From contig JAITKI010000033.1 of assembly GCA_031278515.1 (NCBI GenBank), positions 1 through 39,596 of the forward strand: a stretch of DNA of 39,596 nt. Direction: 5' to 3'. This stretch comes from Oscillospiraceae bacterium (GTDB lineage: Bacteria; Bacillota; Clostridia; Oscillospirales; Oscillospiraceae). Both the position numbers and the translations under genes were made by a program. Under the pieces are notes generated by a model, which was given only the letters and a program-made list of their open reading frames with translations, searched no databases and had not been told where the DNA came from. Shown piece after piece: positions 4,475 to 35,500 of the stretch; within the stretch, counting starts at the first letter, position 1; each line of letters opens with the position of its first letter.

Positions 4475-6364
4475 TCACTTCCTCTTGAAGCCCCTGTCGA
4501 GCGCGGACGCGGAGATCTCCATCGCCACCGGCCGCCCGTGGGGGCAATAGCGCACCTCTCCGGAGAACACGCGCCCGGCCAGCGCCTCAAGCTCTCTCAT
4601 GTCGTGCCGGCGCCCCGATTTGACCGCGGCCTTGCACGCCACCGTCCGCAGCGCGGCGTCGCGCCGCGACTCCGTGTCCGCGCCGCCCCCGCTCCGCAGC
4701 TGCTCGCATATCTCCTCAAGCGCCGTCGCCGCGTCGCCGACATCGATGTCCGAGGGGATGGCGCGCGCCGCTACGGCGTTCCCGCCGAAGCTCTCAATCT
4801 CAAACCCGAGCCGCGCGAGCATCTCCGCGTTCTCCAGAAGCAGCGCCGCGTCCTGCGCGCCGTACTCGCGGATTACAGGCGACAAGAGCGCCTGCGACAT
4901 CACAACGCCGCTCTCCGCCTTGAGCCTGTCGAAGTGTACGCGCTCGTGAGCCGCGTGCTTGTCTATCAGCCACAGGGCGTCCTCGCGCTCGGCGACTATA
5001 TATGTGTTCAGCGCCTCCCCTATGACCCTGTACCCCGCGCGCCGCGCCATCCCCGGCAGCTCCGCGTCGCCGGACTCGTCCGCCGCGGGGATTCCTAACT
5101 GCTCGCCCGGACGTCCGTAAGCGCCCGTCGCTTCGTCCACAGACGCGCGCCACGCCACGCCGCCGGGCGCGGCGCCCCTCGCGCCGCCTCGCGCCGCATC
5201 CGTCTTTCTGAACTCGTCCGCCTTTACCGTCCGGAAAAACTTCTGATCCTCGCGCGGCGGCGAGGGCGTCCCGCGCGCGGCGGCGTACGGCGCGGCCGTT
5301 TCCCGCTCCTGCGGCGCGGGACGGAAGTCCGCCTCCGGGCGCGGGCGCCCCGCCACGACGGCCGCCGCGCCGCCCTCTCCGCGCTCGAGCGCGGAAAGGG
5401 CGGCGTAGTGGACGCTGTCAAACACCTGCTTTTCGTACAGGAATTTTACTTCTGTCTTTGCCGGGTGGACGTTCACATCAACGAGATGCGCGCCCATCGT
5501 TATGTACAGCACGCACGCCGGGAAGCGCCCGGTGAACAGGGAGTTGCGGTACGCCTGTTCGAGCGCCGCCTGGAGCAGCTTCGACTTGACGCAGCGTCCG
5601 TTGACGAAAAAATACTGGTGTCCGCGATTGCCGCGCGCAGCCCCGGGCGTCGAGACAAATCCGGACGTCTCGACGCCGTCTCCCGATGAGGAGCATTTCA
5701 TGAGACCGCCCGCGAACTCGCGTCCGAAAAGCGTGTACACGCACGATTCCGCCCGGCCGTCGCCCGGCGTATGGCGCTCCTCCTTGCCGTCCTTGATATA
5801 CTTGACAGATACGTCCGGGCGCCCCAGCGCGCACGAGACGACGGCGGCCGACACGCCGGCCCCCTCCGCCCTGTCTGTCTTCATGAATTTCAATCGCGCG
5901 GGGGTGTTGAAAAACAGGTCGCGCACGATGATGGTTGTACCCTCGGGGCAACCCGCGGGCGACCGCTCCCCCGCCGCGCCCGCCTCGAGCGCCAGTGAGA
6001 CGCCCTCGCCCTCTCCGCGTTGGCGCGTTGTGAGCTCCACGCGCGATACGGACGCAATCGCCGCCAGCGCCTCTCCTCTGAACCCAAGCGTGCCGATGGC
6101 CTCCAGATCCCGCTCGCTGCGAAGTTTGCTGGTCGCGTGGCGCAAAAACGCCGTCTTTACATCCTCCCCGGCTATGCCGCACCCGTCGTCGGTTACGCGT
6201 ATGTAACTCATTCCTCCGTTTTTTATCTCGACTGTCATCGCCGCGGCACCCGCGTCTATCGCGTTCTCCATCAACTCTTTAACGACTGAGGACGGCCTCT
6301 CGACGACCTCTCCCGCCGCTATAAGATCCGCGACGTGCGGGTCCAGCTCAATAATCCTTGCCAA
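4475..6364 (-). CDS. mutL: DNA mismatch repair protein MutL
   Basis: N-terminal GHKL ATPase signature MARIIELDPHVADLIAAGEVVERPSSVVKELMENAIDAGA, and a C-terminal dimerisation/endonuclease region. The start codon appears to be TTG at 6364. Confidence 0.95.
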   Translation of the reverse strand: MARIIELDPHVADLIAAGEVVERPSSVVKELMENAIDAGAAAMTVEIKNGGMSYIRVTDDGCGIAGEDVKTAFLRHATSKLRSERDLEAIGTLGFRGEALAAIASVSRVELTTRQRGEGEGVSLALEAGAAGERSPAGCPEGTTIIVRDLFFNTPARLKFMKTDRAEGAGVSAAVVSCALGRPDVSVKYIKDGKEERHTPGDGRAESCVYTLFGREFAGGLMKCSSSGDGVETSGFVSTPGAARGNRGHQYFFVNGRCVKSKLLQAALEQAYRNSLFTGRFPACVLYITMGAHLVDVNVHPAKTEVKFLYEKQVFDSVHYAALSALERGEGGAAAVVAGRPRPEADFRPAPQERETAAPYAAARGTPSPPREDQKFFRTVKADEFRKTDAARGGARGAAPGGVAWRASVDEATGAYGRPGEQLGIPAADESGDAELPGMARRAGYRVIGEALNTYIVAEREDALWLIDKHAAHERVHFDRLKAESGVVMSQALLSPVIREYGAQDAALLLENAEMLARLGFEIESFGGNAVAARAIPSDIDVGDAATALEEICEQLRSGGGADTESRRDAALRTVACKAAVKSGRRHDMRELEALAGRVFSGEVRYCPHGRPVAMEISASALDRGFKRK

Positions 6365-7555: not shown

Positions 7556-7584
7556 ATTATACACGATTTTTGCGATATCGACAA
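7556..7584 (-). promoter_or_regulatory. sigma-70-like promoter (part of hairpin-promoter cassette copy 1) facing the alr-like gene
   Basis: On the minus strand: TTGTCG (7579-7584), 17-nt spacer, TATAAT (7556-7561). The -35 begins 23 nt after the hairpin. Confidence 0.45.
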
Positions 7585-7607
7585 CATGACTGTCGCCGGA
7601 CGAATTG

Positions 7608-7669
7608 CGTTTGTCACGGCCGGAGCCGTGACAAACGAGTCACGGGAGCTTGGATCTCGCCGCGCGCGG
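7608..7669 (-). repeat. hairpin repeat copy 1 (stem CGTTTGTCACGGC / GCCGTGACAAACG) plus conserved 32-nt tail
   Basis: 13-bp perfect stem 7608-7620 / 7625-7637 with loop CGGA. The tail AGTCACGGGAGCTTGGATCTCGCCGCGCGCGG (7638-7669) matches the reverse complement of 16162-16193 with 3 mismatches. Confidence 0.8.
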
Positions 7670-15918: not shown

Positions 15919-16024
15919 GAATCCGCATCCGGCGAGATTTTTTTGTCCGCCGCAGCACCGTCGCGGCAAGAGAGACGCCCGGGCGCGGTCCTCGCGCGCG
16001 TCCCGCAGAATATTTTCGTTTGTA

Positions 16025-16046
16025 GCAGTTTTCGCCCCTTCGTCCT
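16025..16046 (+). repeat. partial (half) copy of the hairpin repeat
   Basis: TTCGTTTGTAGCAGTTTTCGCC resembles the left arm of copy 4 (TTCGTTTGCAGCGGTTTCGCC, 28906-28926). No matching right arm follows. Confidence 0.5.
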
Positions 16047-16161
16047 TTTCGCCGCAGGCGAAAATAATTTTTGCGGAGAAGTGCGTCTCGTGCGACGATG
16101 CAAAAATTGTAATATTTCGCGTTTTCCGGGGATTTATTCCTCGGAAAACGCTCTTTGCGAG

Positions 16162-16222
16162 CCGCGCACGGCGAGATCCAATCTCCCGTGACTCGTTTGT
16201 GATGGCGAAGCCATCACAAACG
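16162..16222 (+). repeat. hairpin repeat copy 2 (tail + stem CGTTTGTGATGGC / GCCATCACAAACG)
   Basis: Tail at 16162-16193. 13-bp perfect stem 16194-16206 / 16210-16222 with loop GAA. Confidence 0.8.
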
Positions 16223-16244
16223 AAATTATTCCCGCAGGACTTTC

Positions 16245-16273
16245 TTGCGAATCCGCGCGGTTTGCCGTATAAT
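16245..16273 (+). promoter_or_regulatory. sigma-70-like promoter (cassette copy 2) upstream of dCMP deaminase
   Basis: TTGCGA (16245-16250), 17-nt spacer, TATAAT (16268-16273). The -35 starts 22 nt after the hairpin. Confidence 0.55.
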
Positions 16274-17273: not shown

Positions 17274-17304
17274 GACAATTCCGCGCGTTCTGGAAAATAA
17301 ATTT

Positions 17305-18540
17305 TCATGACCCCTCGCTTTTACCGGCTTTTTCCCGCCGTTTGAGCTGCGCCCTCACCTTCACGGGCAGCCCGAACAGGTTTATAAAGCCCTCCGCCTC
17401 GCGTTGGTTATAATCGCTCTCCCCGAAAGACGCGAGCTCCTCGCTGTACAGGCTGCGCTCGCTCCAGACTCCGGCGTTTATGATGTTTCCCTTGTACAGC
17501 TTGAGCCGTACGCGGCCGTCCACCGCCTCCTGCGTCTTGTCCACGAACGCGGAAATCGCCTCGCGCGCCGGCGTGAACCACTGCCCGTTGTACACGAGTT
17601 CCGCAAACTTCAGGGCGAGAGTTTCCTTGAGGTGGGCCGTATCGCGATCGAGCGTGATTGATTCCAGAACTTCGTGCGCCCTGTACAGGATCGCGCCGCC
17701 CGGAGTCTCGTACACCCCGCGCGATTTCATGCCGACGAGACGGTTTTCGACCACGTCGTACAACCCGACGCCGTGCTTGCCGCCGAGCGCGTTCAGCCTG
17801 CGGATTATCTCTCGGGCGCTCATCTCTTCCCCGTCGATTGACGTCGGTATGCCGCGCGCGAATCCGAGTTCGACATACTCCGCTTTGTCGGGCGCGTTTT
17901 CCGGGGAGACTCCGAGTTCCAGAAAACCCGGCGCGTTGTACCTAGGTTCGCTGCCGGGGTCTTCGAGGTCAAGTCCCTCATGCGACAAGTGCCAGAGATT
18001 TTTGTCCTTTGAGTAGTTTGTCTCGCGGCTGATCTTGAGCGGGACACCACGCGACTCGGCGTAGTCTATCTCGTCCAGGCGGCTTTTCAGGGACCACTCG
18101 CGCCACGGCGCTATTATCTTCATGTCCGGGGCGAACGCCTTAATGGCAAGCTCAAAGCGCACCTGGTCGTTGCCCTTGCCCGTGCAACCGTGACAGATGG
18201 CGTCCGCGCCCTCGCGCAGCGCGATCTCCACTACGCGTTTGGCTATGACAGGACGCGCGAACGACGTACCCAGGAGATACCCCTCGTACTTCGCGCCCGC
18301 CTTCATCGTGGGTATAATGAAATCGTTTACAAATTCCTCCGTAAGATCCTCTATGTACAGCTTTGACGCGCCCGTCTTTATCGCCTTTTCCTCCAGGCCG
18401 TCGAGCTCCGAGCCCTGCCCGACGTCCGCTGAGACCGCGACGACCTCGCAGCCTCCGTAGTTCTCCTTGAGCCACGGAATGATTATTGACGTGTCGAGTC
18501 CTCCCGAGTAGGCGAGAACCACCTTTTTGATATCACCCAT
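17305..18540 (-). CDS. argG: argininosuccinate synthase
   Basis: N-terminal PP-loop [14 protein letters not shown] and full-length ArgG-like sequence (411 aa). ATG at 18540. Confidence 0.95.
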
Positions 18541-20105: not shown

Positions 20106-21797
20106 TTATACACCCGGCGCTCCCGAAATACAACTATCCGGCGCTCTCGTGTCCGGCCCGGCGCGGGCGCGAGCCAAGAGCAGCATACACCGATAATAGT
20201 CGCGCTCGCCGTCCGCGGCGCTCTCGATGAGCGCGCGGCAGCGCTCGGGCGGTCGCAGGTAATCCGAGCGCAGCGCGCCTCGCGCCAAAAGGCGTTCGGC
20301 GTACCGCGCCTGGCGCGCGTCGGCGCCCTGTCGGCGGAGAGTTTGGAGCACACGCTCCGACAGCGCCTCGTATTCCGGATTGTAAAACCGGCCGTCTTTC
20401 GCGTCGTACCTAAGTCCCCGCGCGCGGATCTGGACGGCGCCGCCGCGCGCCTCGGCCGGCCATCTCCCGCCCGGCGGCGCGTCGGGTTCCGGAAGCGCGT
20501 CGGGACTCTCCGACGTACCGGATACGTATATGTAGTATATATTCTTTATCTCGCGGTCTCCGCCGCGCCGCAGCACGCGTCCTATACGCTGTATGCGCTG
20601 ACGCGCGCCCGTGCCGGCGGAAAGTATTATTCCAACGTCCGTATCCGGTACGTTCAGCCCCTCGTCAAGCGCCCGGCAGCACACTATGACGGGGCGCTCG
20701 CCGTCCCTGTAACGCTCCAGCGCGCGCGCCTTTTCCGCGGCGTCCATGTTGCTGTGATAGCGGCATATCTTGCCGGGATACAAGGCGTCGAGTTCGCCGT
20801 ACACGAAATCGACGGTTTCTATGCGCTCGGCAAAAACTATTATGCGGCCGTCGGTTATGAGTTCTTTTACAAGCTCGACCGCGCAATCGGCGCGCGCGCG
20901 GGCCAGGTGTAGAATCTCCTTGCGGCGTATATACAGCAGCGCCAGTTGACGCGCGAGCTCGCCGGTCTTGTCAGCGCGGCCTTGCAATTGCCGCACGCCC
21001 TGTATAAAGGCGGCGCCGCGCTCGCCATTCAGCCGCGGGACGATCTTTACCAACCGCGCGCGCGTTATCGCTATCCTGTCCGTATACGAATCGTAATCCG
21101 CGCGCTCCTCGGGGGAAAAATCGACGGCTACGCTGAACACCGCGCAGCCGGAGGTCACGCTGTCGGCGGCCGCCTCCGATATGCCATATCTGAAAATCAC
21201 GCCGCCCAGCGCGGGCGCGACGGCCGTATCAAAGCCGTCGCACTCCGGCGTCGCCGACAGCCCCAGCGCGAAGTAGCGCTCCCGCGGTACGCGCGTGAGA
21301 AAATCGAAAACGCGCGCGTTGACGGCGCTCCCGAAATGGTGGCACTCATCGCATATGAGCAGTACGGAGCGTCCCGCGTCCGTATCGCGGAGTATATGAC
21401 GCGACACGCAAAAGCGCGCGGTATTGAGTACGTATATCACAAACGGTTTTTCCGGGGACTCCTTGACCGCTCCGCAATAGAGACCGATATCCCCGCGCGA
21501 AACGCCCAGGAAACGCACGATATCCGCCCGCCACTGGTGGGCGAGAAATACCTTCGGCACTACTATCCTCACGCGCAGCGACGTCTTGTCGCGCGTCTTC
21601 GCGAGCCGCTCGATCGCGGCCAGCGCCAGCAATGTCTTTCCCGCCCCCGTGGCGACGCCGGCGACGCCCTTGCACCCGTTTTCGAACCAGCGCGCGAGAC
21701 ACTCGTCCTGCCACGCGTACAGCGTCACGCCGCGCAAAGAATACACGTCCGGAAGCCCCTCCCCTCGTATGCGTTTGCAAACACGCAACGGTTGCAA
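20106..21797 (-). CDS. SF2 helicase (ResIII/DEAD-like core) with Arg-rich C-terminal extension
   Basis: Motif I GVATGAGKT, motif II DECHH, motif III SAT, motif VI QRIGRVLRRG. The last ~120 aa form an Arg/Ala-rich tail with no recognisable domain. The start is ambiguous: TTG at 21797, or GTG at 21746 with GGAGGGG about 10 nt upstream. Confidence 0.85.
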   Translation of the reverse strand: MQPLRVCKRIRGEGLPDVYSLRGVTLYAWQDECLARWFENGCKGVAGVATGAGKTLLALAAIERLAKTRDKTSLRVRIVVPKVFLAHQWRADIVRFLGVSRGDIGLYCGAVKESPEKPFVIYVLNTARFCVSRHILRDTDAGRSVLLICDECHHFGSAVNARVFDFLTRVPRERYFALGLSATPECDGFDTAVAPALGGVIFRYGISEAAADSVTSGCAVFSVAVDFSPEERADYDSYTDRIAITRARLVKIVPRLNGERGAAFIQGVRQLQGRADKTGELARQLALLYIRRKEILHLARARADCAVELVKELITDGRIIVFAERIETVDFVYGELDALYPGKICRYHSNMDAAEKARALERYRDGERPVIVCCRALDEGLNVPDTDVGIILSAGTGARQRIQRIGRVLRRGGDREIKNIYYIYVSGTSESPDALPEPDAPPGGRWPAEARGGAVQIRARGLRYDAKDGRFYNPEYEALSERVLQTLRRQGADARQARYAERLLARGALRSDYLRPPERCRALIESAADGERDYYRCMLLLARARAGPDTRAPDSCISGAPGV

Positions 21798-21815
21798 ACG
21801 CGTTTATCCCTGAAA

Positions 21816-21860
21816 AATCATTTCGTTTGTGATGGCGAAGCCATCACAAACGAAATGATT
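21816..21860 (+). repeat. hairpin repeat copy 3: 45-nt perfect palindrome
   Basis: AATCATTTCGTTTGTGATGGC (21816-21836), loop GAA, GCCATCACAAACGAAATGATT (21840-21860). The 21-bp perfect stem lies between the divergent helicase and the three-gene operon. Confidence 0.9.
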
Positions 21861-21875
21861 CCCGAAAATTTATCC

Positions 21876-21905
21876 TTGACAGCCGCTCGCGCGGGGCGAT
21901 ATAAT
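21876..21905 (+). promoter_or_regulatory. consensus sigma-70 promoter (cassette copy 3) for the three-gene operon
   Basis: TTGACA (21876-21881), 18-nt spacer, TATAAT (21900-21905). The -35 starts 23 nt after ACAAACG. The operon ATG is at 21981. Confidence 0.6.
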
Positions 21906-21980
21906 TGCGGGAAATGTCTGAATATCCGGAGCTACACCTAATTATACGGCGTAACGCTGAATTATGAAAGAGGTTTTTTT

Positions 21981-22772
21981 ATGATCTATGAAGCGTTTTA
22001 CGACGACATCCTTTCCGTCGCGGAGGAACTGAAGGAACAATTGTCGTCCCAGCAAAAGCTTGTCAAGCGTCTGATGAAGTGTGTGGGAAACGGCGACCTG
22101 AAAGCCGCCGCGCGCGAACTCCCCGCCGCGAACGCGGCCGCCGACGTCTGCGCCCGTTCGATAGCCTCGATTACCGAAAAAATCGAGGCGGCCGACATGT
22201 TCGCCTATCTCCGGTCGGGGGACTTCGCGCGGCAGCTTGTCAACATGTGCCGCGAGTACGGAATTGACATCAAAGGCGAGGGAAATTCCTATGAGGTCTT
22301 CCCGTACCGCCTGAAAATCGATCCGCAGAACGCGGAGCTTCAAATCAACGGCAAAAAAGCGCTTGGTCTGCGTCCGCGCGCCGTGGTTGAGGACCTGCAA
22401 AAGAAGCGCGCGCACCTCCTGTCCGCCTCGTTCAACCCCGCGCAGTACGCCGCCGAGCTGTCGTCGGCCTATGATCTCGCGCTTCTCGCCGCGTCCAAGG
22501 GCAAAGCGTACGCGCCCGACGCCGACGTGCATCTCACCACGCTCCACAGGTATTTGACGCCGATGCGCCGTTTTCGGCGCGACTACGACCCGCAGAGCTT
22601 CGCGTTCGACATCGCCCGGCTGTACGACGCGGAGACGGACGCGCCCGTGGTAATCGGCGACGGTCGCCGCGTACATTTCGGGCCGGGCCGCGATAACAGC
22701 AAAGCGATACGCATCCTCGACGCGCTCGGGAGCGAGCGGTTCTTGTCAACCGTCCGGTTTTACAGGCCGTAA
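21981..22772 (+). CDS. hypothetical protein (operon gene A), no family recognised
   Basis: ATG 21981 with GAAAGAGG about 7 nt upstream. 263 aa with a predicted helical N-terminus (LSVAEELKEQLSSQQKLVKRLMK). The stop lies 3 nt before the gene B ATG. Confidence 0.75.
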   Translation: MIYEAFYDDILSVAEELKEQLSSQQKLVKRLMKCVGNGDLKAAARELPAANAAADVCARSIASITEKIEAADMFAYLRSGDFARQLVNMCREYGIDIKGEGNSYEVFPYRLKIDPQNAELQINGKKALGLRPRAVVEDLQKKRAHLLSASFNPAQYAAELSSAYDLALLAASKGKAYAPDADVHLTTLHRYLTPMRRFRRDYDPQSFAFDIARLYDAETDAPVVIGDGRRVHFGPGRDNSKAIRILDALGSERFLSTVRFYRP

Positions 22773-22775
22773 CTC

Positions 22776-23825
22776 ATGAGTACGACCGTGATTTCCGGAA
22801 TTTCCGATTCCGGGGAACCTGTCCGCATGACAGAGGGCCAGATGCCCGCCGACGTCGGTTTTATCACCGATTTTTGGCGGGAGCAATATCTGGAGCCGTA
22901 TATAACGCTGGGCGGGAGCAAGATAAAGTTCGTAGTCGGGAGCCCGGGCAGCGGCAAGAGCGGCTGTCTGCGCCGGTTCGCGTCGGACGCCGCGGCCCTC
23001 GGGTGCAAAACGGCGTCGCTCTCGGCAAAAAGCGTCTGGCTCAACGACTTTAAGGAGATATACGCCGCCGTGTTCGGCGCCGTGGATTTTCAGGGCTGTT
23101 TGATGAATTGCGCGCGCAAAATTGTGTCCGAGATGGGTCGGGACTACGACGAGATACCGGACGGCATCAGCTTCGCCGACTATCTGGCGTATCTCGGGAT
23201 GCTCGACCCTGTCACGCGTCTTGAACTGCGCGCCCAGATCAATTCGATGTTTTTCAAAAATCCGCGTATGGACAAGAACTTTGCCGTCTGCGCCGCCATG
23301 CTGACGGGCGGCATTCTGGGACATCCCACACTGGAGCAGTCGTCCCGCGAATTGCTGTGGTCGTGGCTCAAAGCCGAAAAGGGCGTGCGCGCGCCGACAA
23401 TCCGCAAGCTGGGGCTGGCGCCGTACAAAATAAGCAAGCACAACGCGCGCCACATGCTGAGATCGCTCATTGAGGTCGTCCGCCTCGCCGGGTACACGGC
23501 CCTCGTCGTCGGCGTCGACGATTTGGAGATCCTGACGGAGACGTCGTCGCTCGAGGAGATACGCTATACAAAGATGCGCCGCGAGGACGCCTACGAGAGC
23601 ATAAGAGAGCTTATCGACAGCATAGACACCCTGGATTATGTGATGTTTGTGTTCGCGTTCGGACGGGAGCTTCTCGACGACGAGGTCTGCGGCTTCAAAT
23701 CGTATCAGGCGCTTTGGATGCGGATACAAAACGAAATTACGGGCGGCAAGTTCAACAGGTTTTCGGATATCATTGACATGGATCGCCTCAGAGCGCCCGG
23801 CAGTCAGGAGACTTCACATGAATAG
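22776..23825 (+). CDS. P-loop ATPase, BrxD/DUF2791-like (operon gene B)
   Basis: Walker A GSPGSGKS (22938-22961) and Walker B-like ALVVGVDDLE. The context YLEPYITLGGSKIKFVVG resembles the BREX BrxC/BrxD ATP-binding family as I remember it. Confidence 0.75.
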   Translation: MSTTVISGISDSGEPVRMTEGQMPADVGFITDFWREQYLEPYITLGGSKIKFVVGSPGSGKSGCLRRFASDAAALGCKTASLSAKSVWLNDFKEIYAAVFGAVDFQGCLMNCARKIVSEMGRDYDEIPDGISFADYLAYLGMLDPVTRLELRAQINSMFFKNPRMDKNFAVCAAMLTGGILGHPTLEQSSRELLWSWLKAEKGVRAPTIRKLGLAPYKISKHNARHMLRSLIEVVRLAGYTALVVGVDDLEILTETSSLEEIRYTKMRREDAYESIRELIDSIDTLDYVMFVFAFGRELLDDEVCGFKSYQALWMRIQNEITGGKFNRFSDIIDMDRLRAPGSQETSHE

Positions 23826-25032
23826 AACGGACAGCTATAGTGCCAGAAATATTATAGAGGCGCTGCGCTCCGGCGTGTCCTCCCGCGAAGTGGGCTGCTG
23901 CTTCTCATCGGCGCGGCCCGGACTCACGCGCGAGATCCACAACGCGCTCACCGGCGTGGCGGAGGGCGGCGAGTCCGGCGGACGCATAATTACCGGGAAG
24001 TACGGCGAGGGCAAGACGCACCTGCTCAATACCGTATTCAACATGGCGCACGAGCGGAATATGGCGGTCAGCGCCGTTACGCTCAGCAAGGAAAGTCCGC
24101 TGTCGAATCTCGGCGTGCTGTATCCCAAGGTTCTGCAAGAGACGTATCTGCCCGGAAAAGTTCAGCCGGGTATTTCGGATATATTCGAAAGACTGTCGGC
24201 CGGAAGCCCCGCCGCGGCCGCTCTGCTGGAATACTGCCTTACGAAGCTTGAGTGCAACAAACTCTACTATGTGCTGAAATCTTACCTCGGAACGCAGAGC
24301 GATGAGGAAAAATACATGCTTTTAGGCGATATCGAGGGCGATTTTATGGCGAACGCGACGGTCAAACAGATCTACAAGCGCATCTACGGCGAGACGGTTG
24401 TATTCAACACCCCGTTCTCAAAAACGCGCCACGTGACCGACTATTTCGCGTTTGTGTCGCGTCTGTTTTTATCCGCGGGATACGACGGCTGGGTCATCCT
24501 CTTCGACGAGGCCGAGCTGATAGGGCGCATGAGCAAAAAAGCGCGGCAGTCCGCTTACGCCAATATGGCGGCGCTGCTGCGCCCGGACGCCATTGACCGC
24601 GCGTACTGCCTGTTTGCGTTCAACTCCTCGTACGTACCCGACGTCATAGAGTCGAAGCACGAGTACGCTATCGTTGAGGAGTCGCCGCTGCTCTCGCAGG
24701 AGCGCAAGAAGATTATATCCGGGGTATTGTCCGAAATCGCCTCCGCCGCGCAGCTTGTGCCGCTGGGCAAGGGGGAGATTCTTGAGATTCTGGAGAAAAT
24801 ACGCGACTATCACGGCCGGGCTTACGGATGGAGTCCAAAGCCCGACGCCGCGGACATCCTGGCGTTCACCGAAAAGCACGGCTACCTGCTCAGGACGCGC
24901 ATACGCACCGCCGTGGAACTGCTCGATCAATACTACCAGTACGGTTCAGCCGACGAGATAAGCGTGGGCGAGCTGGGACAGATGGAGTTCGATGAGGACG
25001 GCGATCCGCCGTCGCTCGACGCGTTTGTATAA
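23818..25032 (+). CDS. P-loop ATPase, BrxD/DUF2791-like (operon gene C)
   Basis: ORF 23647-25032 trimmed to ATG 23818 (GGAG 8 nt upstream), which overlaps the end of gene B by 8 nt. The N-terminus ARNIIEALRSGVSSREV is followed by Walker A GKYGEGKT (23995-24018) and Walker B VILFDEAE. Confidence 0.8.
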   Translation: MNRTDSYSARNIIEALRSGVSSREVGCCFSSARPGLTREIHNALTGVAEGGESGGRIITGKYGEGKTHLLNTVFNMAHERNMAVSAVTLSKESPLSNLGVLYPKVLQETYLPGKVQPGISDIFERLSAGSPAAAALLEYCLTKLECNKLYYVLKSYLGTQSDEEKYMLLGDIEGDFMANATVKQIYKRIYGETVVFNTPFSKTRHVTDYFAFVSRLFLSAGYDGWVILFDEAELIGRMSKKARQSAYANMAALLRPDAIDRAYCLFAFNSSYVPDVIESKHEYAIVEESPLLSQERKKIISGVLSEIASAAQLVPLGKGEILEILEKIRDYHGRAYGWSPKPDAADILAFTEKHGYLLRTRIRTAVELLDQYYQYGSADEISVGELGQMEFDEDGDPPSLDAFV

Positions 25033-28790: not shown

Positions 28791-28899
28791 GATATATTGC
28801 ACGAATGGCGGAATTTGTCGTAATTTGTAGGAATTGTAACAACCCTGCGCCGCTCCAAACCCGCGCGATTCGCCGCACCCTCCCCGGTGAGTTAATCAG

Positions 28900-28944
28900 A
28901 ATCAATTCGTTTGCAGCGGTTTCGCCATCACAAACGAATTGATT
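28900..28944 (+). repeat. hairpin repeat copy 4 (degenerate upper stem)
   Basis: AATCAATTCGTTTG (28900-28913) pairs perfectly with CAAACGAATTGATT (28931-28944). The inner 17 nt CAGCGGTTTCGCCATCA keep the right upper arm GCCATCA but not the left one. Confidence 0.75.
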
Positions 28945-28959
28945 CAAATTTCTGTATAC

Positions 28960-30871
28960 AACCTAAAACCCTGATAATAGTTACTCAAAACGCTATTGCC
29001 TGATGATGCCGAGCCTTGATAGGAATAAACGGTCGCGTTTAATTGTTTCTGTTTGCCATCTACATTTGCTCATGTTCGTGTAGACCGTTGTTTCTTCGAT
29101 GCAGTCAAACCAAGCAAACAACCGCTCAATCGACATGCTGTTTAACCAGTTGAGAAGCGCCTTTTCTTCCTTCAAATTTTGCTCGGTGTCATGTAACGGA
29201 TCGCCGTTTTTTATAGCAAGAGTCTTTTTTAAATTCGAGATTGCCTGATGCAGATATTCATGGTAACAAAGCGCGACGAACTGGCAAAAAAACCGGCCGC
29301 TCAGACTATCCGGATACCATACCCTTGTTCGATTGCCGTCGACATATTGCTTATCCATGCGGAAGTGTTCCTCTATCTTTTCCCTCCGTCGGTACTTCCG
29401 CAACGCATCCCAGACATCCAGCGGCGCATTGGAAACAAGGATAAAACAACCTGCAAAACGGGTCGCATCCTGAAATGCCTCCTCATTGTATGTGATAGAT
29501 AAACCGCCTCTGGTGTTTCTGATCATGAGATATTTGTCTGCAATTCGTCGCTCACCTTCAGATATTGGTTGTACTTCGGCTTTCAGATGTTCTTGGACTT
29601 TTCTGATATCATCAGCCAGGGAGGCCGTATCGCATTCGGCCTTGGCAGCGTTTCTGTACAAGTAAAGATATATCCGATGTTCTTCTGTTACCACATCCCC
29701 TTTCGAGATGTTACTGCGGCTGCGCTCTCTGACCCGCCGGAAATTATGTTGGGTCGCGATTGCCATTCCGTACACGCTCGGGTCAAAAGGACAGTGGTTG
29801 GACAACTGACTGATAGAATTCAATATCCCATCGAACTCAGACTTAATCCATGAAGCATTCAGCTTTCCAGCGACTAAAAACTTAATATGGCTGCGTATGA
29901 GTGTCAGCATATTGTCTTCGGAATAGAATCCTGCATCCATTACAAACATTGGCTTTTCCATACCGAAGACGGAGAGTTGCTTGCTGGCGTTGATAATAGA
30001 AATGACATCTGGTATATTTCCCGGTTGTCTCGCGTAAGCAATCGGCTGTCCTGTTTCCAAGCAATACTGCGTTAAAAGTTTCACGCTCTTTAGTCCGTCA
30101 TCGCTTTTATTATAGCCGTATCTTGCTTCGATCTGGTTCTCTGAATACGACGAGACGGTAGTTGAGTCAAATGCGATGGAAGACTTGGATGGCACACGGT
30201 CAGCTCTCGCACGGAAGAATTTCTGTTGCATGTCGGCATCCGTGCCGATCGCTTTCATCAAGGCATAACATCCGTCTTGAGATATGCCGTCCCGATAGGG
30301 GATATCGTGGTTTATCTGCCATTCTTCGATATAAGGGATGGTCTTGCCTGGGTTCGCATTCCAGTAGCGGGCAATTGAAAGAATTTTCTCGGCGGTCGTG
30401 CGATCGGTAGCGTGGAGAAGATCCTGATCAATGCCGGATTCGCGGCCAATCCATTCCAGGATGCAAGCAACGCCAATCCTCTTGCTTGATGCCAATTTCG
30501 GTACGGATGCTTTTGCCCTGCGGGGTCTCGTTGAAACCATTTCTGTCTTTCCAGCCGGAATTTTACCAACCAAATGACTGCTTATAACTTCATTGAAGCG
30601 TTTTTCGGGGTTGTATTTGGTCGTTCTCTCATAAATGTAAATATCTCCATTGCCGCGTTTGACATTGACTTGCCCGGTTTTTGGCTCTAACGAAGCTTTT
30701 TTTGGCATGATGTCCCTCCTGATTTGAGTTACTATATTATATAATAGTTACTCGAATAAATCAAGAGGGAAAATACCGTTAAATGCCGAAAATAAACCAT
30801 ATTTACTGACTAATGAAGTTGAAATATCCTTTGAGGTCGTTTTTGAGTGAGCATTGTCAGGGTTTTAGGTT
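28960..30871 (-). mobile_element. insertion sequence, IS4 superfamily (IS1634-like), about 1.9 kb
   Basis: Imperfect terminal inverted repeats: AACCTAAAACCCTGATAATAGTTACTCAAAACG (28960-28992) versus the reverse complement of 30838-30871, AACCTAAAACCCTGACAATGCTCACTCAAAAACG (first 15 nt identical). One transposase gene. Visibly more AT-rich than the flanks. No target-site duplication found. Confidence 0.85.
28993..30708 (-). CDS. DDE transposase (IS4/IS1634-like)
   Basis: ATG 30708 with an AGGAGGG SD. DDE candidates FDSTTVSSYS and VMDAGFYSEDN, plus the YREK-type signature YRRREKIEEHFRMDK. 571 aa. Confidence 0.85.
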   Translation of the reverse strand: MPKKASLEPKTGQVNVKRGNGDIYIYERTTKYNPEKRFNEVISSHLVGKIPAGKTEMVSTRPRRAKASVPKLASSKRIGVACILEWIGRESGIDQDLLHATDRTTAEKILSIARYWNANPGKTIPYIEEWQINHDIPYRDGISQDGCYALMKAIGTDADMQQKFFRARADRVPSKSSIAFDSTTVSSYSENQIEARYGYNKSDDGLKSVKLLTQYCLETGQPIAYARQPGNIPDVISIINASKQLSVFGMEKPMFVMDAGFYSEDNMLTLIRSHIKFLVAGKLNASWIKSEFDGILNSISQLSNHCPFDPSVYGMAIATQHNFRRVRERSRSNISKGDVVTEEHRIYLYLYRNAAKAECDTASLADDIRKVQEHLKAEVQPISEGERRIADKYLMIRNTRGGLSITYNEEAFQDATRFAGCFILVSNAPLDVWDALRKYRRREKIEEHFRMDKQYVDGNRTRVWYPDSLSGRFFCQFVALCYHEYLHQAISNLKKTLAIKNGDPLHDTEQNLKEEKALLNWLNSMSIERLFAWFDCIEETTVYTNMSKCRWQTETIKRDRLFLSRLGIIRQ

Positions 30872-32568
30872 TGAACGCCTACAATAGCGGCGGGTATCAG
30901 GGTGTCATAAATATCAGTAACGCGGCCAGTTCCGATCCGGCTACTAAAGCCGCGAGGAACGAGGCGTTAGTTAATCTCAATGCCGCGCGAAACGCGAAAC
31001 TCGCGGGTTCCGCGTCGCCTATCACGTGGGTTGGCGACGATGGGAAGACGTACACGGCTGAATCATACATGCTTAGTAATATCGGCGGAAGTTACGCTCC
31101 CGGTGGCGCGAGTTATTCGCCGACTTCGACGTTTACGAGTAATCTGCCCGCCGGCTTTGATAGCTCGGCGGGTTTGCAGAGTTCCGGCGCGTCGTCGCTG
31201 TCGTCGTCTCAATCGTCTCCGTACACGTATTCGGACGCTATCACGTATTACAGCAATAACGCAAACCAAAGCCAGATAGATAGTTTGAGGAGCGCTATTA
31301 ACAACTACAGGAGTTTTACGAGTACGCCGCAGCCGACGTGGGACGATGTGTACAAGGACGCGTACAACGCGGCGTTGAACGAGGTGCTTGGGCGGCAGGA
31401 GTTCAGTTATGATTTGAATACCGATCCGAATTATCAGGCGTACGCGCAGCAATATCTTATGGAGGGCGATAGGGCGACGCAGAATACTATAGCGCAGATG
31501 GCGGCGCTTTCGGGCGGTATGCCGTCGTCGGCGGCGGCCACGGCGGGCCAGCAGGCGGGCGATTACTACGCGGCGCAGCTCAGCGCCAAGGTTCCGGAGT
31601 TATACCAGCAAGCATATCAGCGGTATGTCGATGAGTTCAATATGGATCGTTCGGCGCTTGGCGATGTGTATAACGCGCGTAATTTCGATTACGGCATATA
31701 TCGCGACGATGTTGGCGATTATCAGGCGAACAGGGATTTTGACTACTCCGATTATCTCAATCAGTACGATATGCTTCAAAATTCGCTCAACAACTATGTC
31801 AACGCCGATGAGACGGCGTACGGCAGGTCACGCGACGCGATAGCGGACGCGCGGTACACCGATGAGACGGCGTACAACAGGGAGCGCGACGCGATAGCGG
31901 ACGCGCTGTACGCCGACGAGACGGCGTACAGCAGGTCACGCGACGCTTTAGGCGATACTCGGTATGAGACGGAGTACGCCGACGCGTTAAAGCAGCAGGA
32001 TTACGAGAATATGACGCAGGCGCAAAAGGACGCCTTTAACAGTGCGTGGGCGATGTTTGAGGCCGGTGTCATTAACGACAATGTGGCAAAGGCTTTAGGG
32101 TACGCGACGACGGCGCAGTTGCAGGCGGCGTATGACGCGGCTGTCAAGGCGGCAAAGTCGAGCGGTACGGGTACGGGTTCCGAAAAGGAGAGCGCGGACG
32201 TTTATGTCGAGGGGCGGGGGCCTGTGACGGCGGAGCAGCTTGCGTTAGGGTTGAAGAATGGCACTGTCAAGCAGGGTACGCGCAACGGGACGACGTATTA
32301 TTACGCGAGCGATGGGATTACGCCGATATCGCTGCCCGGCAGTTCCAGTTTCTACGGCGTGCCTGTGAACGAGCAGTACAAAATTATAGAGTCAACATAC
32401 GGTAAAGTTGTGCTTGACGCGATGCAAGCTGTCGGCAGGGTCATTAGCGGTACGAATGTTTCGGATAAGGTGAAGCAGCAGAGGGCCGAGGAGGCGTTGG
32501 CAAATTACGATCTGTCCGCCGAGGAGTATGCCGGTATACTCCAGGCGTATGGTCTTTCGTATAAGTAG
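30847..32568 (+). CDS. repeat-containing hypothetical protein (phage/ICE-like), 5' end probably displaced by the IS
   Basis: The frame has high third-position GC from the first base outside the IS (30872). The track's GTG start at 30847 lies inside the IS inverted repeat, so the native start is probably missing. The product is Ser/Ala/Tyr/Asp/Asn-rich with three 18-aa tandem repeats. Confidence 0.55.
   Translation: MSIVRVLGLNAYNSGGYQGVINISNAASSDPATKAARNEALVNLNAARNAKLAGSASPITWVGDDGKTYTAESYMLSNIGGSYAPGGASYSPTSTFTSNLPAGFDSSAGLQSSGASSLSSSQSSPYTYSDAITYYSNNANQSQIDSLRSAINNYRSFTSTPQPTWDDVYKDAYNAALNEVLGRQEFSYDLNTDPNYQAYAQQYLMEGDRATQNTIAQMAALSGGMPSSAAATAGQQAGDYYAAQLSAKVPELYQQAYQRYVDEFNMDRSALGDVYNARNFDYGIYRDDVGDYQANRDFDYSDYLNQYDMLQNSLNNYVNADETAYGRSRDAIADARYTDETAYNRERDAIADALYADETAYSRSRDALGDTRYETEYADALKQQDYENMTQAQKDAFNSAWAMFEAGVINDNVAKALGYATTAQLQAAYDAAVKAAKSSGTGTGSEKESADVYVEGRGPVTAEQLALGLKNGTVKQGTRNGTTYYYASDGITPISLPGSSSFYGVPVNEQYKIIESTYGKVVLDAMQAVGRVISGTNVSDKVKQQRAEEALANYDLSAEEYAGILQAYGLSYK
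31807..31968 (+). repeat. 3 x 54-bp in-frame tandem repeat
   Basis: Units at 31807-31860, 31861-31914 and 31915-31968 encode DETAYGRSRDAIADARYT / DETAYNRERDAIADALYA / DETAYSRSRDALGDTRYE. A partial fourth unit (TEYA) follows. Confidence 0.85.
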
Positions 32569-32588
32569 GGGCAAGGAGGTGCCGAGAA

Positions 32589-35500
32589 GTGGCTACCGCA
32601 ATTGACAGGATAATATCGTTGCGCGCGCGGAAAGCGTCGTCTGTGGGCGCGACTTCCGAGGCGGGCGCCGCGTGGGAGACGTCCGACGGGCGTGTGATTT
32701 CCGCGCCTACGCGCACACTTGCGCGGATTAAGGCGTTGCGGGAGTCCGGTACGGCGCGGTCGGCGGATGAGATTTTGCGCGAGGTACGCGAAGAGCAGGA
32801 GGCGGAGCGGACGGAGGCGGCGCGGGCGGCTGTTGAGGCGGCTGTGAAGGCGCGTAACGCGTCGCCGCTCGAGTCGTGGCTGCCGCGCGCTTCGACCGAC
32901 GAGGTCGCGCGGTACCATGAGCAGAAGCAGGAGCAAATTGACAAACTCCAATTCGCCGAGGCGGGTTTGCCGTTTCCGACGGGCGCTGACGCTGTGCGGG
33001 ATTACGCGGATTCTGAGTGGTCTGTGCTGCGTGAACGCGGCGCGGCGCGGAAGTACAACGCGAATCGCGCGGAGTACGATAAGTTGGCGGCTTTGCCCGC
33101 GACTCCGGCAAACGCCGCCAAGATGGCGCTTCTCAACGCGGATATGGAGGGGTATATCCGCTACGGGGATAATAAGAACGAGTATACCGAGCGGAAGAGC
33201 GCGTATGATAAGGGTTTGGATGATACGCGCGCCAGACTTGCGGAGTTGAAGGATACTGATTGGCAGGAATATGAGCGGCTGCTTAGAGAGACAAAGGAAA
33301 AGACGCCGCGGTACAACGCCGAGAAACAGTCGCTGGATGAGTTTTCATCTTCCCGGCAGAAGTCGGAGCGCGCGGCATACGCGGAGGCTTTGAAGATTGA
33401 GGATGAGCAATATCGTTTGAGGGCCGATTCCGGCTCAAAGGCGTACAAGAGTACCGTAAAGCTCGGGCAGGCGGAGGCGGAGCGTATCGCGGGTTTTACG
33501 GCAGACGAGACTACGGCGGCGACGGGAGATAAGTCGTCGCCTTTGACGTATACACAGCAACGTATCGTAAACAGAATCGTTCATGGGGCTTCCGCCGCTA
33601 AGCCTGTGTCGTACGAGCCCGGGTACGTCGATGTTACGGGTAAGGATTATTATGGGAAGTACGATTATCTGTCCGATAATGAGAAGACTGATTTCTATTA
33701 TTATCTCGGCAAGGGCGATACAGATGGCGCGTTTCGGTATCTCGGTATGCTCGGGACGACGCTCGAGGCGCGTGAGACGGGGAAGTACAAGGAGGATTTG
33801 AGCGCGGCGGCGAAGGAGGATCCCGCGGGGGGCGCGTTTTTGCAGTTTATGGCGAATTTCGCAACGCCGGGTGATTTGCTTGCTATGGGCGGCGAGGCGT
33901 TGGCGAACGCTGTCAGGGGCGACGCCAAGTACGAACCGGCGCGCCCGTCGAGTTCCGCGTATAGGGCGTCACAGAGTGTGTCGGCGCTGGGGCAGGGCGT
34001 CGAGGCGCGTATAAGGGAGGGTCTTGACGATACTAAGCCTGTGTTTCTCGGTATGACAATGGCGGATTTGGCGGGTCAGGGGTATCAGCTCGCGCAGTCT
34101 ATTGCGCAGTCCGGCGCGAATATGGCGCTGTTTGGGCCGGCGAGCATTTACGTGATGGGCGCTCAGGCGGCGGGTAACGCGGCGTACAACGCGGCGGAGC
34201 GCGGGTTGGCTCCGGATCAGGCGTTTTTGCTCGGACTCGGGAGCGGCGTCGTTGAGGCTGTCACGGAGAAGGTGTCTGTCGATCGTTTCTTCAAGCTGTT
34301 GGAGCAGGGTAAAAAGTTGAGCGCGAAACAGATGCTTTTGCAGATTGCGCAGCAAATGGTGGCGGAGGGCAGTGAGGAGGTCGTCGCTGAAGAGCTTAAC
34401 AATTTGGTCGATATTTTTGTTGCGGGCGACGCTTCGGAGTACGCGCGTTACAAGGCCGGGCTTGTCGAGAGCGGTATGAGCGAGTCCGAGGCGGAGAAGT
34501 CGGCTATGCTGCAATACTTCGTAAAGAACGCGGCGGTGGCCGGTATTGGGGGCGCTGTTTCCGGCGGTTTGTTCGGCGGCGCGGGCGCTGTGGGGAATAA
34601 CGCGCGAGTCGCCGCCTATGAGCGCGCCGTACAGGGCGCACAGGCTGCGCAGGGTGGTATAGTGCCGCAGGGTGGTACAGTGCCGCAGGGGCGGGAAAAT
34701 TCGCTTCCCGCGGCGATACAGGGCGATACGGCGCGGGGTAACGCGGCGAGGCCGGATGTGGCCGGTCTGATTCAGTCCGGGCCGAATCTGAGCAGACAGG
34801 AGGCTGCGGCTGCCGCGCTTGCGTCGGGCGATACTGATGTCAACGCAATCTTTCCGGCGGCGCGGAACGCCGGTTACAATCAGGGCGAGAGAGAGGGCGC
34901 GGCTGCGGATGGCGTGACTGCGGACGGCGATGTCTCAAATTTGTCGAGTCCGTGGGATTTGACGGCTGCCGATGTGACGGAACTTTTCGACGCTTACGAG
35001 GTTGCGCGGGAGGATAGGCCGGACGCGCAGAGGGCTGCGGATATTATCAACAAGGTGCAGCTGGGCGAGCAGTTGGGCGAGGCCGAGGTGATGCTGCTCG
35101 TCGAGTATCCGGAGTTTGCGTCTATCGCGGCGGAGTATGAGAGTTCAGAGCTTGGCGGGCGCGGTTTGGCGGATAGTGCGGCGCGGCAGGGCGACGCGGG
35201 ACAGGTTGTGACGGCGCGGGACAGTACGGGACAGGTCAATACGCAATCGGCGGCTCAGGCGGGTCAGGCGCAAGGCGCGTCGGTTTCCGGTGTAATCGGA
35301 CTAAATGGGGAGGTTTCAGGTAATGGCGAACAGGGCGGAGCGCAACAGCGAGGCGAGATACTTGATAGAGGATACGGACGGGTTTCTGATGAGTCTGACG
35401 GAGTCGCAGTTGAAAATGTATCGGGAGAACAAGGGCAAGACTATCCTGCCGAGGTCAGACGAGCGGCAGATAATAGACGAAATCTTTTACCAAATCAGGG

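Follow-up and report, generated by a model that had tools for sequence, protein, structure and literature searches.

A 39,596-nucleotide contig from an Oscillospiraceae bacterium (assembly GCA_031278515.1, contig JAITKI010000033.1, positions 1 to 39,596; hereafter the window) carries four copies of a stable DNA hairpin, all of them in spacers between outward-pointing flanking genes. Copy 1 lies between a minus-strand alr gene, the product of which matches the Pfam family Ala_racemase, and a plus-strand gene for a MerR-type regulator; copy 2 between a tRNA-Pro gene (minus) and the dCMP deaminase gene comEB (plus); copy 3 between a helicase gene (minus) and a BrxC/D-like operon (plus); and copy 4 between a gene for a hybrid histidine kinase (minus) and an insertion sequence (IS). 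A first-pass annotation regarded the recurrent arrangement as a REP- or Correia-like miniature element delivering an outward promoter, or as a structured operator for a shared regulator. In this study, we describe the hairpins as part of a dispersed, non-coding inverted-repeat family with 5-bp target duplications and insertion polymorphism. The most probable reading is that small mobile elements of the MITE type (for miniature inverted-repeat transposable elements), inserted near host promoters, make up the family and that the hairpins are their inverted-repeat core. The family is a genuinely undescribed one within this known type.

The hairpins were located by a search for the pattern CGTTTG-N10-30-CAAACG, which matches six times in the window against 0.04 expected. 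Four of the matches are the hairpins of the first-pass annotation, at 7608-7637 (copy 1), 16194-16222 (copy 2), 21824-21852 (copy 3) and 28908-28936 (copy 4), and a fifth, at 21772-21800, belongs to a decayed relative. Single-strand folding of the hairpins gives -16 to -20 kcal/mol (z = -7 to -10.6); that of copy 4 is degenerate (-11 kcal/mol, z = -4.8). In the upper stem, copy 1 has CACGGC/GCCGTG whereas copies 2 and 3 share GATGGC/GCCATC, which is the compensatory change originally noticed, and the 32-nt tail ascribed to copies 1 and 2 is likewise present, once per strand (7638-7669, plus; 16162-16193, minus; none expected by chance).

Extension into the flanks reveals a conserved element, about 224 nt in length, of which the tail and the hairpin form the right-hand third. 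The unit starts with GAATAATTTCGTTTG and ends with CAAACGAAATGATTC, which are inverted repeats; the left terminal repeat is GAATAATTTCGTTTG(T)CAC, degenerate in many copies, and the right terminal repeat is its complement. Profile matches and flank extension define copy 2 (16008..16231, plus strand) as a full-length 224-nt element. Its left terminal repeat (16008-16029) is followed by the terminator-like hairpin P1 (16046-16064) with TAATTTTTGC after it, a long-range pairing of AATTTTTGC (16066-16074) with GCAAAAATT (16100-16108), the variable hairpin P4 (16119-16151), the small hairpin P5 (16161-16172), the tail, here part of the element body (16162-16193), the terminal hairpin P6 (16193-16223) and the right tip AAATTATTC (16223-16231). 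The 'half copy' of the first-pass annotation is present and corresponds to this left terminal repeat; 16016-16046 is the left end of the element at 16008-16231 and not a separate unit. Copy 1 is a short form (7599..7669, minus strand; nhmmer match to profile positions 156-220) consisting of the P5 region, the tail, a 13-bp P6 (7608-7637) and a degenerate right tip, CAATTCGTC, without a left terminal repeat. Copy 3 (21815..21861) is a 47-nt solo unit with two terminal repeats back to back; because these are joined at their inner ends, the unit is a perfect palindrome of 18-21 bp. Copy 4 (28899..28945) is another 47-nt unit, the left arm of which corresponds to the left end of a full copy (TTCGTTTGCAGCGGTTTCGCC) and the right arm to the normal right repeat; judged from its sequence, it is best read as an internal-deletion derivative in which the full-copy left end is joined directly to the right repeat. 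It had been thought to be cut by the IS and proves to be complete. The IS begins 14 nt beyond its end, which is the position at which a -35 box would be expected to start. The decayed relative, found with a more sensitive unit profile, is a micro-form at 21762..21809 (plus strand; nhmmer E = 6e-8) composed of CCCTCGTATG, a hairpin CGTTTGCAA...TTGCAAACG and then CGTTTATCC, and its complement overlaps the ribosome-binding site of the minus-strand helicase gene. An independent assembly of the same sequence (L029, a Logan contig of 5626 nt) breaks inside copy 2 and inside copy 3, so that these repeats evidently fragment short-read assemblies.

Related copies were sought with the strict hairpin pattern over one genome per species, and the copy numbers given are lower bounds. 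Approximately 35 copies were examined, mostly on contigs of metagenome-assembled genomes (MAGs); the relatives are fragmented MAGs (isolate labels Nc350, Nm470, Gx481 and Pcl387) and metagenome contigs, cited below by L numbers. The strict pattern finds copies in at least four Oscillospiraceae MAGs, including at least 14 copies on 13 contigs of Nc350_bin193, and the family is dispersed across at least five related Oscillospiraceae genomes. Its size classes are discrete (47, 95, 223-225 and 329-340 nt), and a profile built from the copies sorts it into five forms: full copies; a long form with an extra module of 110-125 nt at one internal site (L005a, L020a and L020b); the 95-nt form of L110; short forms beginning near P5 (window copy 1, L007, L021 and L028); and the 47-nt solo palindromes (window copies 3 and 4, L001a and L001b). 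The larger forms hold a structured internal module between the left repeat and a complete terminal hairpin, and the elements decay by internal deletion. Insertions and deletions shift the reading frame between copies and no conserved open reading frame (ORF) is present; the element is therefore non-coding. A small peptide starting from AAGGAG-N8-GTG in the element centre was considered and rejected, its frame not being conserved.

Two further repeats were encountered in the course of this search. The module of the long copies is a second repeat of about 110-125 nt with hairpins of its own, inserted at a fixed point in their small central hairpin (L005 2572-2684; L020 3634-3763 and 6544-6666; L025 6391-6560; L007 about 330-400). 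It is also found in the opposite orientation beside truncated left ends and, from its sequence, looks like a nested independent small element. Pattern matches in Faecalibacterium, Oxalobacter and proteobacteria represent a different hairpin spanning 32 nt, CGTTTGTCGCGGCCTGCGGGCCGCGACAAACG, which recurs in several Faecalibacterium genomes, always beside a GGCCA(A/T)A... motif and with flanks unrelated to the family (contigs L009, L013, L014, L017-L019, L024 and L026, from Faecalibacterium and Oxalobacter).

Target-site duplications were scored just outside the G...C boundaries of the unit; some boundaries and duplications were first read by eye and later scripted. Perfect 5-bp flanking repeats border four of 13 two-ended units, namely window copy 2 (CCGCA, at 16003-16007 on the left and 16232-16236 on the right), L112 (ATGTG), L001a (TTTGC) and L001b (CGCGA). 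Four of the five positions match in window copy 3 (CTGAA at 21810-21814 and CCGAA at 21862-21866), L110 and L006. At least four matching positions are thus seen in 7/13 units (P ~ 4e-10), compared with 7/260 comparisons at control offsets.

The mobility of the element is also apparent at orthologous sites, which were reached through homologues of the window dCMP deaminase on syntenic contigs of related Oscillospiraceae. In the window, the tRNA-Pro/comEB spacer contains the 224-nt copy; the copy at this site in L110 measures 95 nt and has its left repeat joined to P5, tail and hairpin; L111 retains an 18-nt remnant (GAATAAATTTGTTTTTCC); and L112, L113 and L114 show no trace of the element. The upper stem of the L110 copy, AAGCGC/GCGCTT, is wholly different from that of the window copy and still paired. 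Since the flanking 5-mers and the stem subfamilies of these two copies differ, they may be independent insertions, and for the same reason compensatory evolution in situ at the comEB locus was dropped as an explanation. A unit of about 55 nt stands between the stop of the iron-containing alcohol dehydrogenase gene and the argG start in L111 alone, where it extends the dehydrogenase frame by about seven codons; this spacer measures 20 nt in the window and in L110. Next to the rpmB promoter, L112 has a full copy and L111 a solo unit. The search of related genomes accordingly supports the earlier suggestion of a miniature mobile element, which agrees with the terminal inverted repeats, the 5-bp duplications, the dispersal and the presence/absence at orthologous sites. 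A scan for argG orthologues in metagenomes returned only relatives of <=78% identity, none of them with the element. The window encodes the 62-residue ribosomal protein L28 (16957-17142, minus strand), a gene missed by an ORF list with an 80-residue threshold, and upstream of its promoter (TTGATT-17-TAGAAT) the sequence AAAATAAATTTTCATGA (17294-17310) resembles a solo-unit remnant; the unit at this site is intact in L111 and a full copy in L112. In L111, two tandem units of about 110 nt (…GCCAGGTGGCGCGTCAGGTCGG…AAAATGAATGGACAGCCGAAGCTGTCCATTC) occupy 2335-2560, just upstream of the tRNA-Pro gene.

The relation of the element to promoters was the centre of the first-pass annotation. All promoters described here are sigma70-like consensus predictions, with support from conservation at two loci only. 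The alr promoter (7584->7556, minus strand; TTGTCG-17-TATAAT) has a -35 box that begins 23 nt past the hairpin foot, a distance made up of the 9-nt tip, a 5-mer and 9 nt. The comEB promoter (16245..16273, plus strand; TTGCGA-17-TATAAT) lies 8 nt past the duplication and that of the 21981+ operon (21876..21905, plus strand; TTGACA-18-TATAAT) 9 nt past it. The hairpin-to-(-35) linkers of copies 1, 2 and 3 are thus 23, 22 and 23 nt, in agreement with the linker of 22-23 nt and the three TATAAT boxes reported before. Had hairpin, linker, -35 and -10 moved together as a cassette that brings an outward promoter, the recurrence of this architecture at three window loci and at many loci elsewhere would follow, and Correia elements do carry promoters (PMC10969869). 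However, homology between copies ends 9-12 nt past the hairpin, which leaves the -35 and -10 boxes outside the repeat; in the case of copies 2 and 3, 42 nt with 98% identity give way to unrelated sequence. The right-hand target duplication is positioned between the element and the -35 box, a promoter scan predicts no sigma70-like promoter inside the element, and the element-free comEB spacers of L112, L113 and L114 retain TTGnnn-17-TATAAT. For these three reasons the adjacent -35/-10 boxes belong to the host and are not delivered by the element, and a mobile promoter cassette is highly improbable. Inspection by eye for an internal sigma70, extended -10 or sigma54 promoter gave weak partial matches only, and these candidates were discarded.

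The insertions are nevertheless phased relative to the -35 hexamers of these host promoters, in the order element end, 5-bp duplication, 7-9 bp and -35. In 12 of 18 promoter-facing ends the distance from the hairpin foot to the -35 box is 21-23 nt (P ~ 3e-12 against a uniform distribution over 0-60 nt), which equals the tip (9 nt) plus the duplication (5 bp) plus 7-9 bases. The phase holds for each of the four copies that have a perfect duplication, with the -35 box at duplication + 8 or 9 nt, and the L020b and L025 ends have no usable -10 box yet show a TTG hexamer at the same distance of + 8 or 9 nt. In oriented copies the promoter side is the hairpin end; none of nine left ends faces a promoter. 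A fixed distance of this kind would also be expected of an operator, and the palindrome TTCGTTTGT-N13-ACAAACGAA, centred near -73 of the promoters, could in principle bind a global activator or repressor. The outer half-sites of P6 are nearly invariant and its inner stem is variable, which would suit an operator, and sites for proteins such as integration host factor (IHF) are known on mobile repeats (PMC10969869). The inner stem nevertheless retains its pairing, which a dimeric DNA-binding protein does not need, and relatives keep the same promoters without the element. Six right ends lie 3-11 nt past the stop codon of an opposite-strand gene or a tRNA 3' end, some of them inside operon junctions, and the genes downstream are unrelated in function (alr, comEB, rpmB, rimP-nusA, glycyl-radical enzymes, an MFS transporter and V-ATPase). 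We therefore consider an operator unlikely as the primary identity of the repeat; a secondary role of this kind is conceivable, but it does not account for the copies after stop codons, those in operon junctions or the unrelated genes. Boxes resembling those of CRP, Fur, Zur or LexA were rejected as their spacings do not fit.

Two observations concern individual element-bearing promoters. One MAG contains paralogous glycyl-radical (PFL-like) genes, at L006 4880-7393 and L020 3970-6414, each with a full copy phased upstream of its promoter, and in L020 an inverted copy of the element directly follows the stop codon of the gene. A palindromic repeat of the form GATA(G/T)AATATCCGC...GCGGATATT(C/A)TATC overlaps the predicted -10 boxes of element-adjoining promoters (L021 about 2070-2105; L027 about 6130-6170) and recurs further along L027.

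The interior of the element is highly structured. RNAalifold analysis of ten long copies gives a chain of helices, for which pair counts were made on dedicated alignments. In the terminal hairpin P6, 98.8% of the cells are paired and six of 14 pairs show two-sided changes; in P5, 89.8% are paired with two-sided changes at two of four pairs; and in P4 pairing is complete (100%), with two-sided changes at 11 of 14 pairs and a covariation score of 0.85 compared with 0.24 in shuffles. Covariation of the stems, with pairing kept, is thus evident in all three helices. Where helices are intact, nine independent non-Watson-Crick pairs occur; each of them is G.T on the forward, promoter-directed strand and none is A.C (two-sided sign test ~0.004), a one-strand pattern that points to a single-stranded functional form. 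Folding of copy 2 relative to shuffles yields z = -7.0 for the forward strand and z = -6.5 for the reverse strand. A single terminator-like hairpin with a T-run, P1 at 16046-16064, is present, on the forward strand only, and its T-run can instead pair with GCAAAAATT 30 nt downstream according to RNAalifold. The terminal hairpin P6, after which one strand reads AAATGATTC and the opposite one AGTTACG, is no canonical intrinsic terminator (a G+C-rich hairpin plus a T-run); P1 alone qualifies within the element, and the scan found no terminator-like site around copy 1. In oriented copies a conserved unpaired CGTA(A/T)CT precedes the 13-14-bp stem on its 5' side, and the solo copies have symmetric AAT(N)ATT tips. 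In a search of Rfam 15, tRNA-Pro was the sole match at gathering score, and nothing credible fell on the element at E values up to 10.

Sequence identity varies along the element in an unusual manner. Pairwise comparison of regions within one genome, Nc350_bin193, gives 96% for the centre, 100% for the P4 loop, 100% for the linker, 98% for the P6 arms, 77% for the P4 stems, 67% for the left repeat, 42% for the P6 loop and 40% for the right tip. These values suggest an alternative in which the interior of about 170 nt is a domesticated module that functions as a single strand, either a promoter-directed RNA or one DNA strand, and is kept upstream of promoters, for example as a terminator or insulator combined with an UP-like tip. 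The conserved centre and variable termini, the paired and covarying helices, the G.T pairs confined to the forward strand, the T-run hairpin on that strand, the forward-strand folding and the fixed orientation to promoters would all be in keeping with such a module. However, no promoter is predicted within the element to drive an RNA, no Rfam family corresponds to it and the reverse strand folds nearly as well. Template-switch correction could keep perfect palindromes paired in the absence of selection, strand-biased C-to-T mutation could yield the excess of G.T pairs, and the interior is dispensable, as forms of 47 and 95 nt occupy the same kind of site. We regard the domesticated module as possible but doubtful; it is compatible with a mobile origin of the family.

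Stable hairpins with compensatory changes and G.T pairs are likewise typical of repetitive extragenic palindromes (REPs), which are 20-40 nt long with stems of 6-9 bp, reaching up to 12-13 bp in a single family, and have at one end a GTAG or CGTC tag that is left unpaired (PMC3733652). The present family resembles REPs, bacterial interspersed mosaic elements (BIMEs) and REPINs in its dispersed extragenic hairpins, in compensatory stem variation and in the location of some copies right after stop codons. It also occurs in mosaics with other repeats, and BIME-like composites are present in which the other end is an inverted degenerate hairpin copy. The unpaired CGTA(A/T)CT 5' of the hairpin would also suit a repeat that is moved as single-stranded DNA by a Y1 enzyme of the HUH class, whether a REP-associated tyrosine transposase (RAYT) or IS200-like. 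Against this, the stems here are 13-21 bp, at least 13-14 bp in length, the termini are A/T-rich and there is no GTAG or CGTC tag. We know of no HUH transposition that makes a target duplication, and the 5-bp duplications described above contradict both this mode of movement and the earlier likening to REPs. An HUH/Y1 motif screen of 194 kb of related contigs, a weak screen that covered a few percent of each genome, detected no such ORF, neither RAYT nor IS200-like. A REP- or REPIN-type origin thus seems decidedly unlikely.

Correia elements of Neisseria offer a second comparison. They too are small inverted-repeat elements that lie mostly just upstream of genes, are associated with promoters and exist in long and short forms differing by internal deletion. 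Correia elements duplicate TA and carry their own -35/-10 boxes and an IHF site, whereas the duplication here is 5 bp and of variable sequence, the promoter is outside and no internal sigma70-like promoter is predicted. They show no sequence similarity to the family and belong to a different host phylum, and the proposed Correia-like nature is contradicted by these differences.

The family instead agrees well with MITEs, which are defined by a length that is typically <500 bp, the absence of a transposase gene, terminal inverted repeats and direct repeats in younger copies (PMC10969869). All of these features were found: the elements are short and carry no transposase gene, have terminal inverted repeats and flanking duplications, and occur as dispersed copies that are present or absent at orthologous sites. 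As in Chunjie, MITEAba12, QMITE and RUP, they are <500 bp without an ORF, have terminal inverted repeats of 15-22 nt and direct repeats flanking the better-preserved copies, are multi-copy and intergenic, form a size series by internal deletion, contain very stable stem-loops and are nested with small repeats. They differ from these MITEs in that no related autonomous IS was identified, either in the window or across 194 kb of contigs from relatives, the smallest member consists of two joined ends, the interior is better conserved than the ends, and the copies stand in one orientation at a fixed distance from -35 hexamers.

Several observations weigh against a MITE-type family, which we hold to be the probable reading. 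Six of the 13 two-ended units have no recognisable duplication, and several short forms are without the left repeat. Neither the window nor about 194 kb of related contigs yielded a transposase with matching ends: Pfam analysis of 30 window ORFs gave as its only candidate an IS4-like DDE transposase with ends unrelated to the element, and when the ORFs around the copies were compared all against all, no gene recurred. Viral contigs contain no match to the element. The facing of promoters by the hairpin end alone is not predicted by symmetric ends, and the one-strand G.T pattern is a further difficulty. Lastly, in Nc350_bin193 the termini are the least conserved parts and the interior is 96-100% identical, the opposite of what active selfish copies would be expected to show. 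A MITE that is purely selfish would not be expected to show such a conserved interior, G.T pairs on one strand and a constant orientation; these features leave room for a domesticated single-stranded function.

If the family is of MITE type, a cut-and-paste transposase of the DDE type that binds the GAATAATTTCGTTTGTCAC ends would mobilise the elements in trans. The constant phase could then have either of two causes. The first is target choice: the TTGTCA of the terminal repeat, 12 nt from its tip, would have a mimic in the -35 hexamer TTGnCA, which is 12-14 nt from the junction. New copies are also placed beside older ones, copy 3 abutting the micro-form and the full copy in L112 lying 5 nt from a solo copy. 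IS30- and IS911-type transposases direct insertion to inverted repeats, beside sequences that resemble their own ends. The likeness to these systems, in that copies land near end-like sequences and the -35 box resembles the TTGTCA of the terminal repeat at a matching distance, is pure analogy, as the spacing fits only approximately and no transposase is known here. The second possible cause is selection, since insertion would bring the A/T-rich tip AAATGATT to about -57 to -49, at which a distal UP-element subsite would be expected; this subsite concept, of Estrem and co-workers (1998/1999), is cited in PMC4390567. The compensatory stem changes would arise because both arms are copies of one repeat and stay paired; instead of selection, template-switch correction of palindromes could account for the retained pairing.

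More tentatively, the same observations may be taken further, in either or both of two directions. The machinery may recognise sigma70-type promoters and insert 7-9 bp upstream of the -35 box in a fixed orientation, perhaps taking the -35 hexamer for the TTGTCA core of the element's own end. The interior of about 170 nt may be a domesticated strand-specific module, which would constitute an undescribed structured RNA or single-stranded DNA, with at least ten copies per genome, that acts as an insulator or terminator with an UP-like tip upstream of promoters. We give these two readings well under an even chance. No precedent for a transposon directed at the region upstream of -35 emerged from a shallow literature search.

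The window has several other features. The IS next to copy 4 (28960-30871) has imperfect inverted ends of 31 nt (87% complementary) that are unrelated to the ends of the element, no clean target duplication, and a DDE_Tnp_1 transposase of 571 residues (28993-30708, minus strand). The G+C content falls to about 45% in the IS, and the sign of the GC skew changes from about 31 kb onwards. The plus strand of 30847-36400 shows a strongly positive GC skew and repetitive coding sequence, the tested ORFs of which have no Pfam match; it contains three 54-nt tandem units (31802-31963) and scattered repeats of 28-30 nt. Further on, a direct repeat of 94 nt (36707-36800 and 38123-38216; 91% identical, 1.4 kb apart) is associated with short ORFs that have no Pfam match. 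Beside copy 3, the region 20111-25032 comprises a ResIII/DEAD helicase gene (minus strand) divergent from an operon that encodes an unknown protein of 263 residues and two BrxC/BrxD-like ATPase ORFs. This region may be a defence locus, and its operon promoter adjoins copy 3.

Recognition of the family has consequences for annotation, since repeats of this kind break assemblies, create spurious ORFs and can pass for operators or promoter cassettes. If the elements repeatedly land at one phase upstream of the -35 box, they would represent a natural promoter-targeting insertion system, and their A/T-rich tip would lie at the position of an UP-element subsite. Among uncultured gut Clostridia, the family could also serve as a naturally occurring experiment on how promoters are rewired, and its conserved interior, structured on one strand, hints at a function beyond selfish spread.

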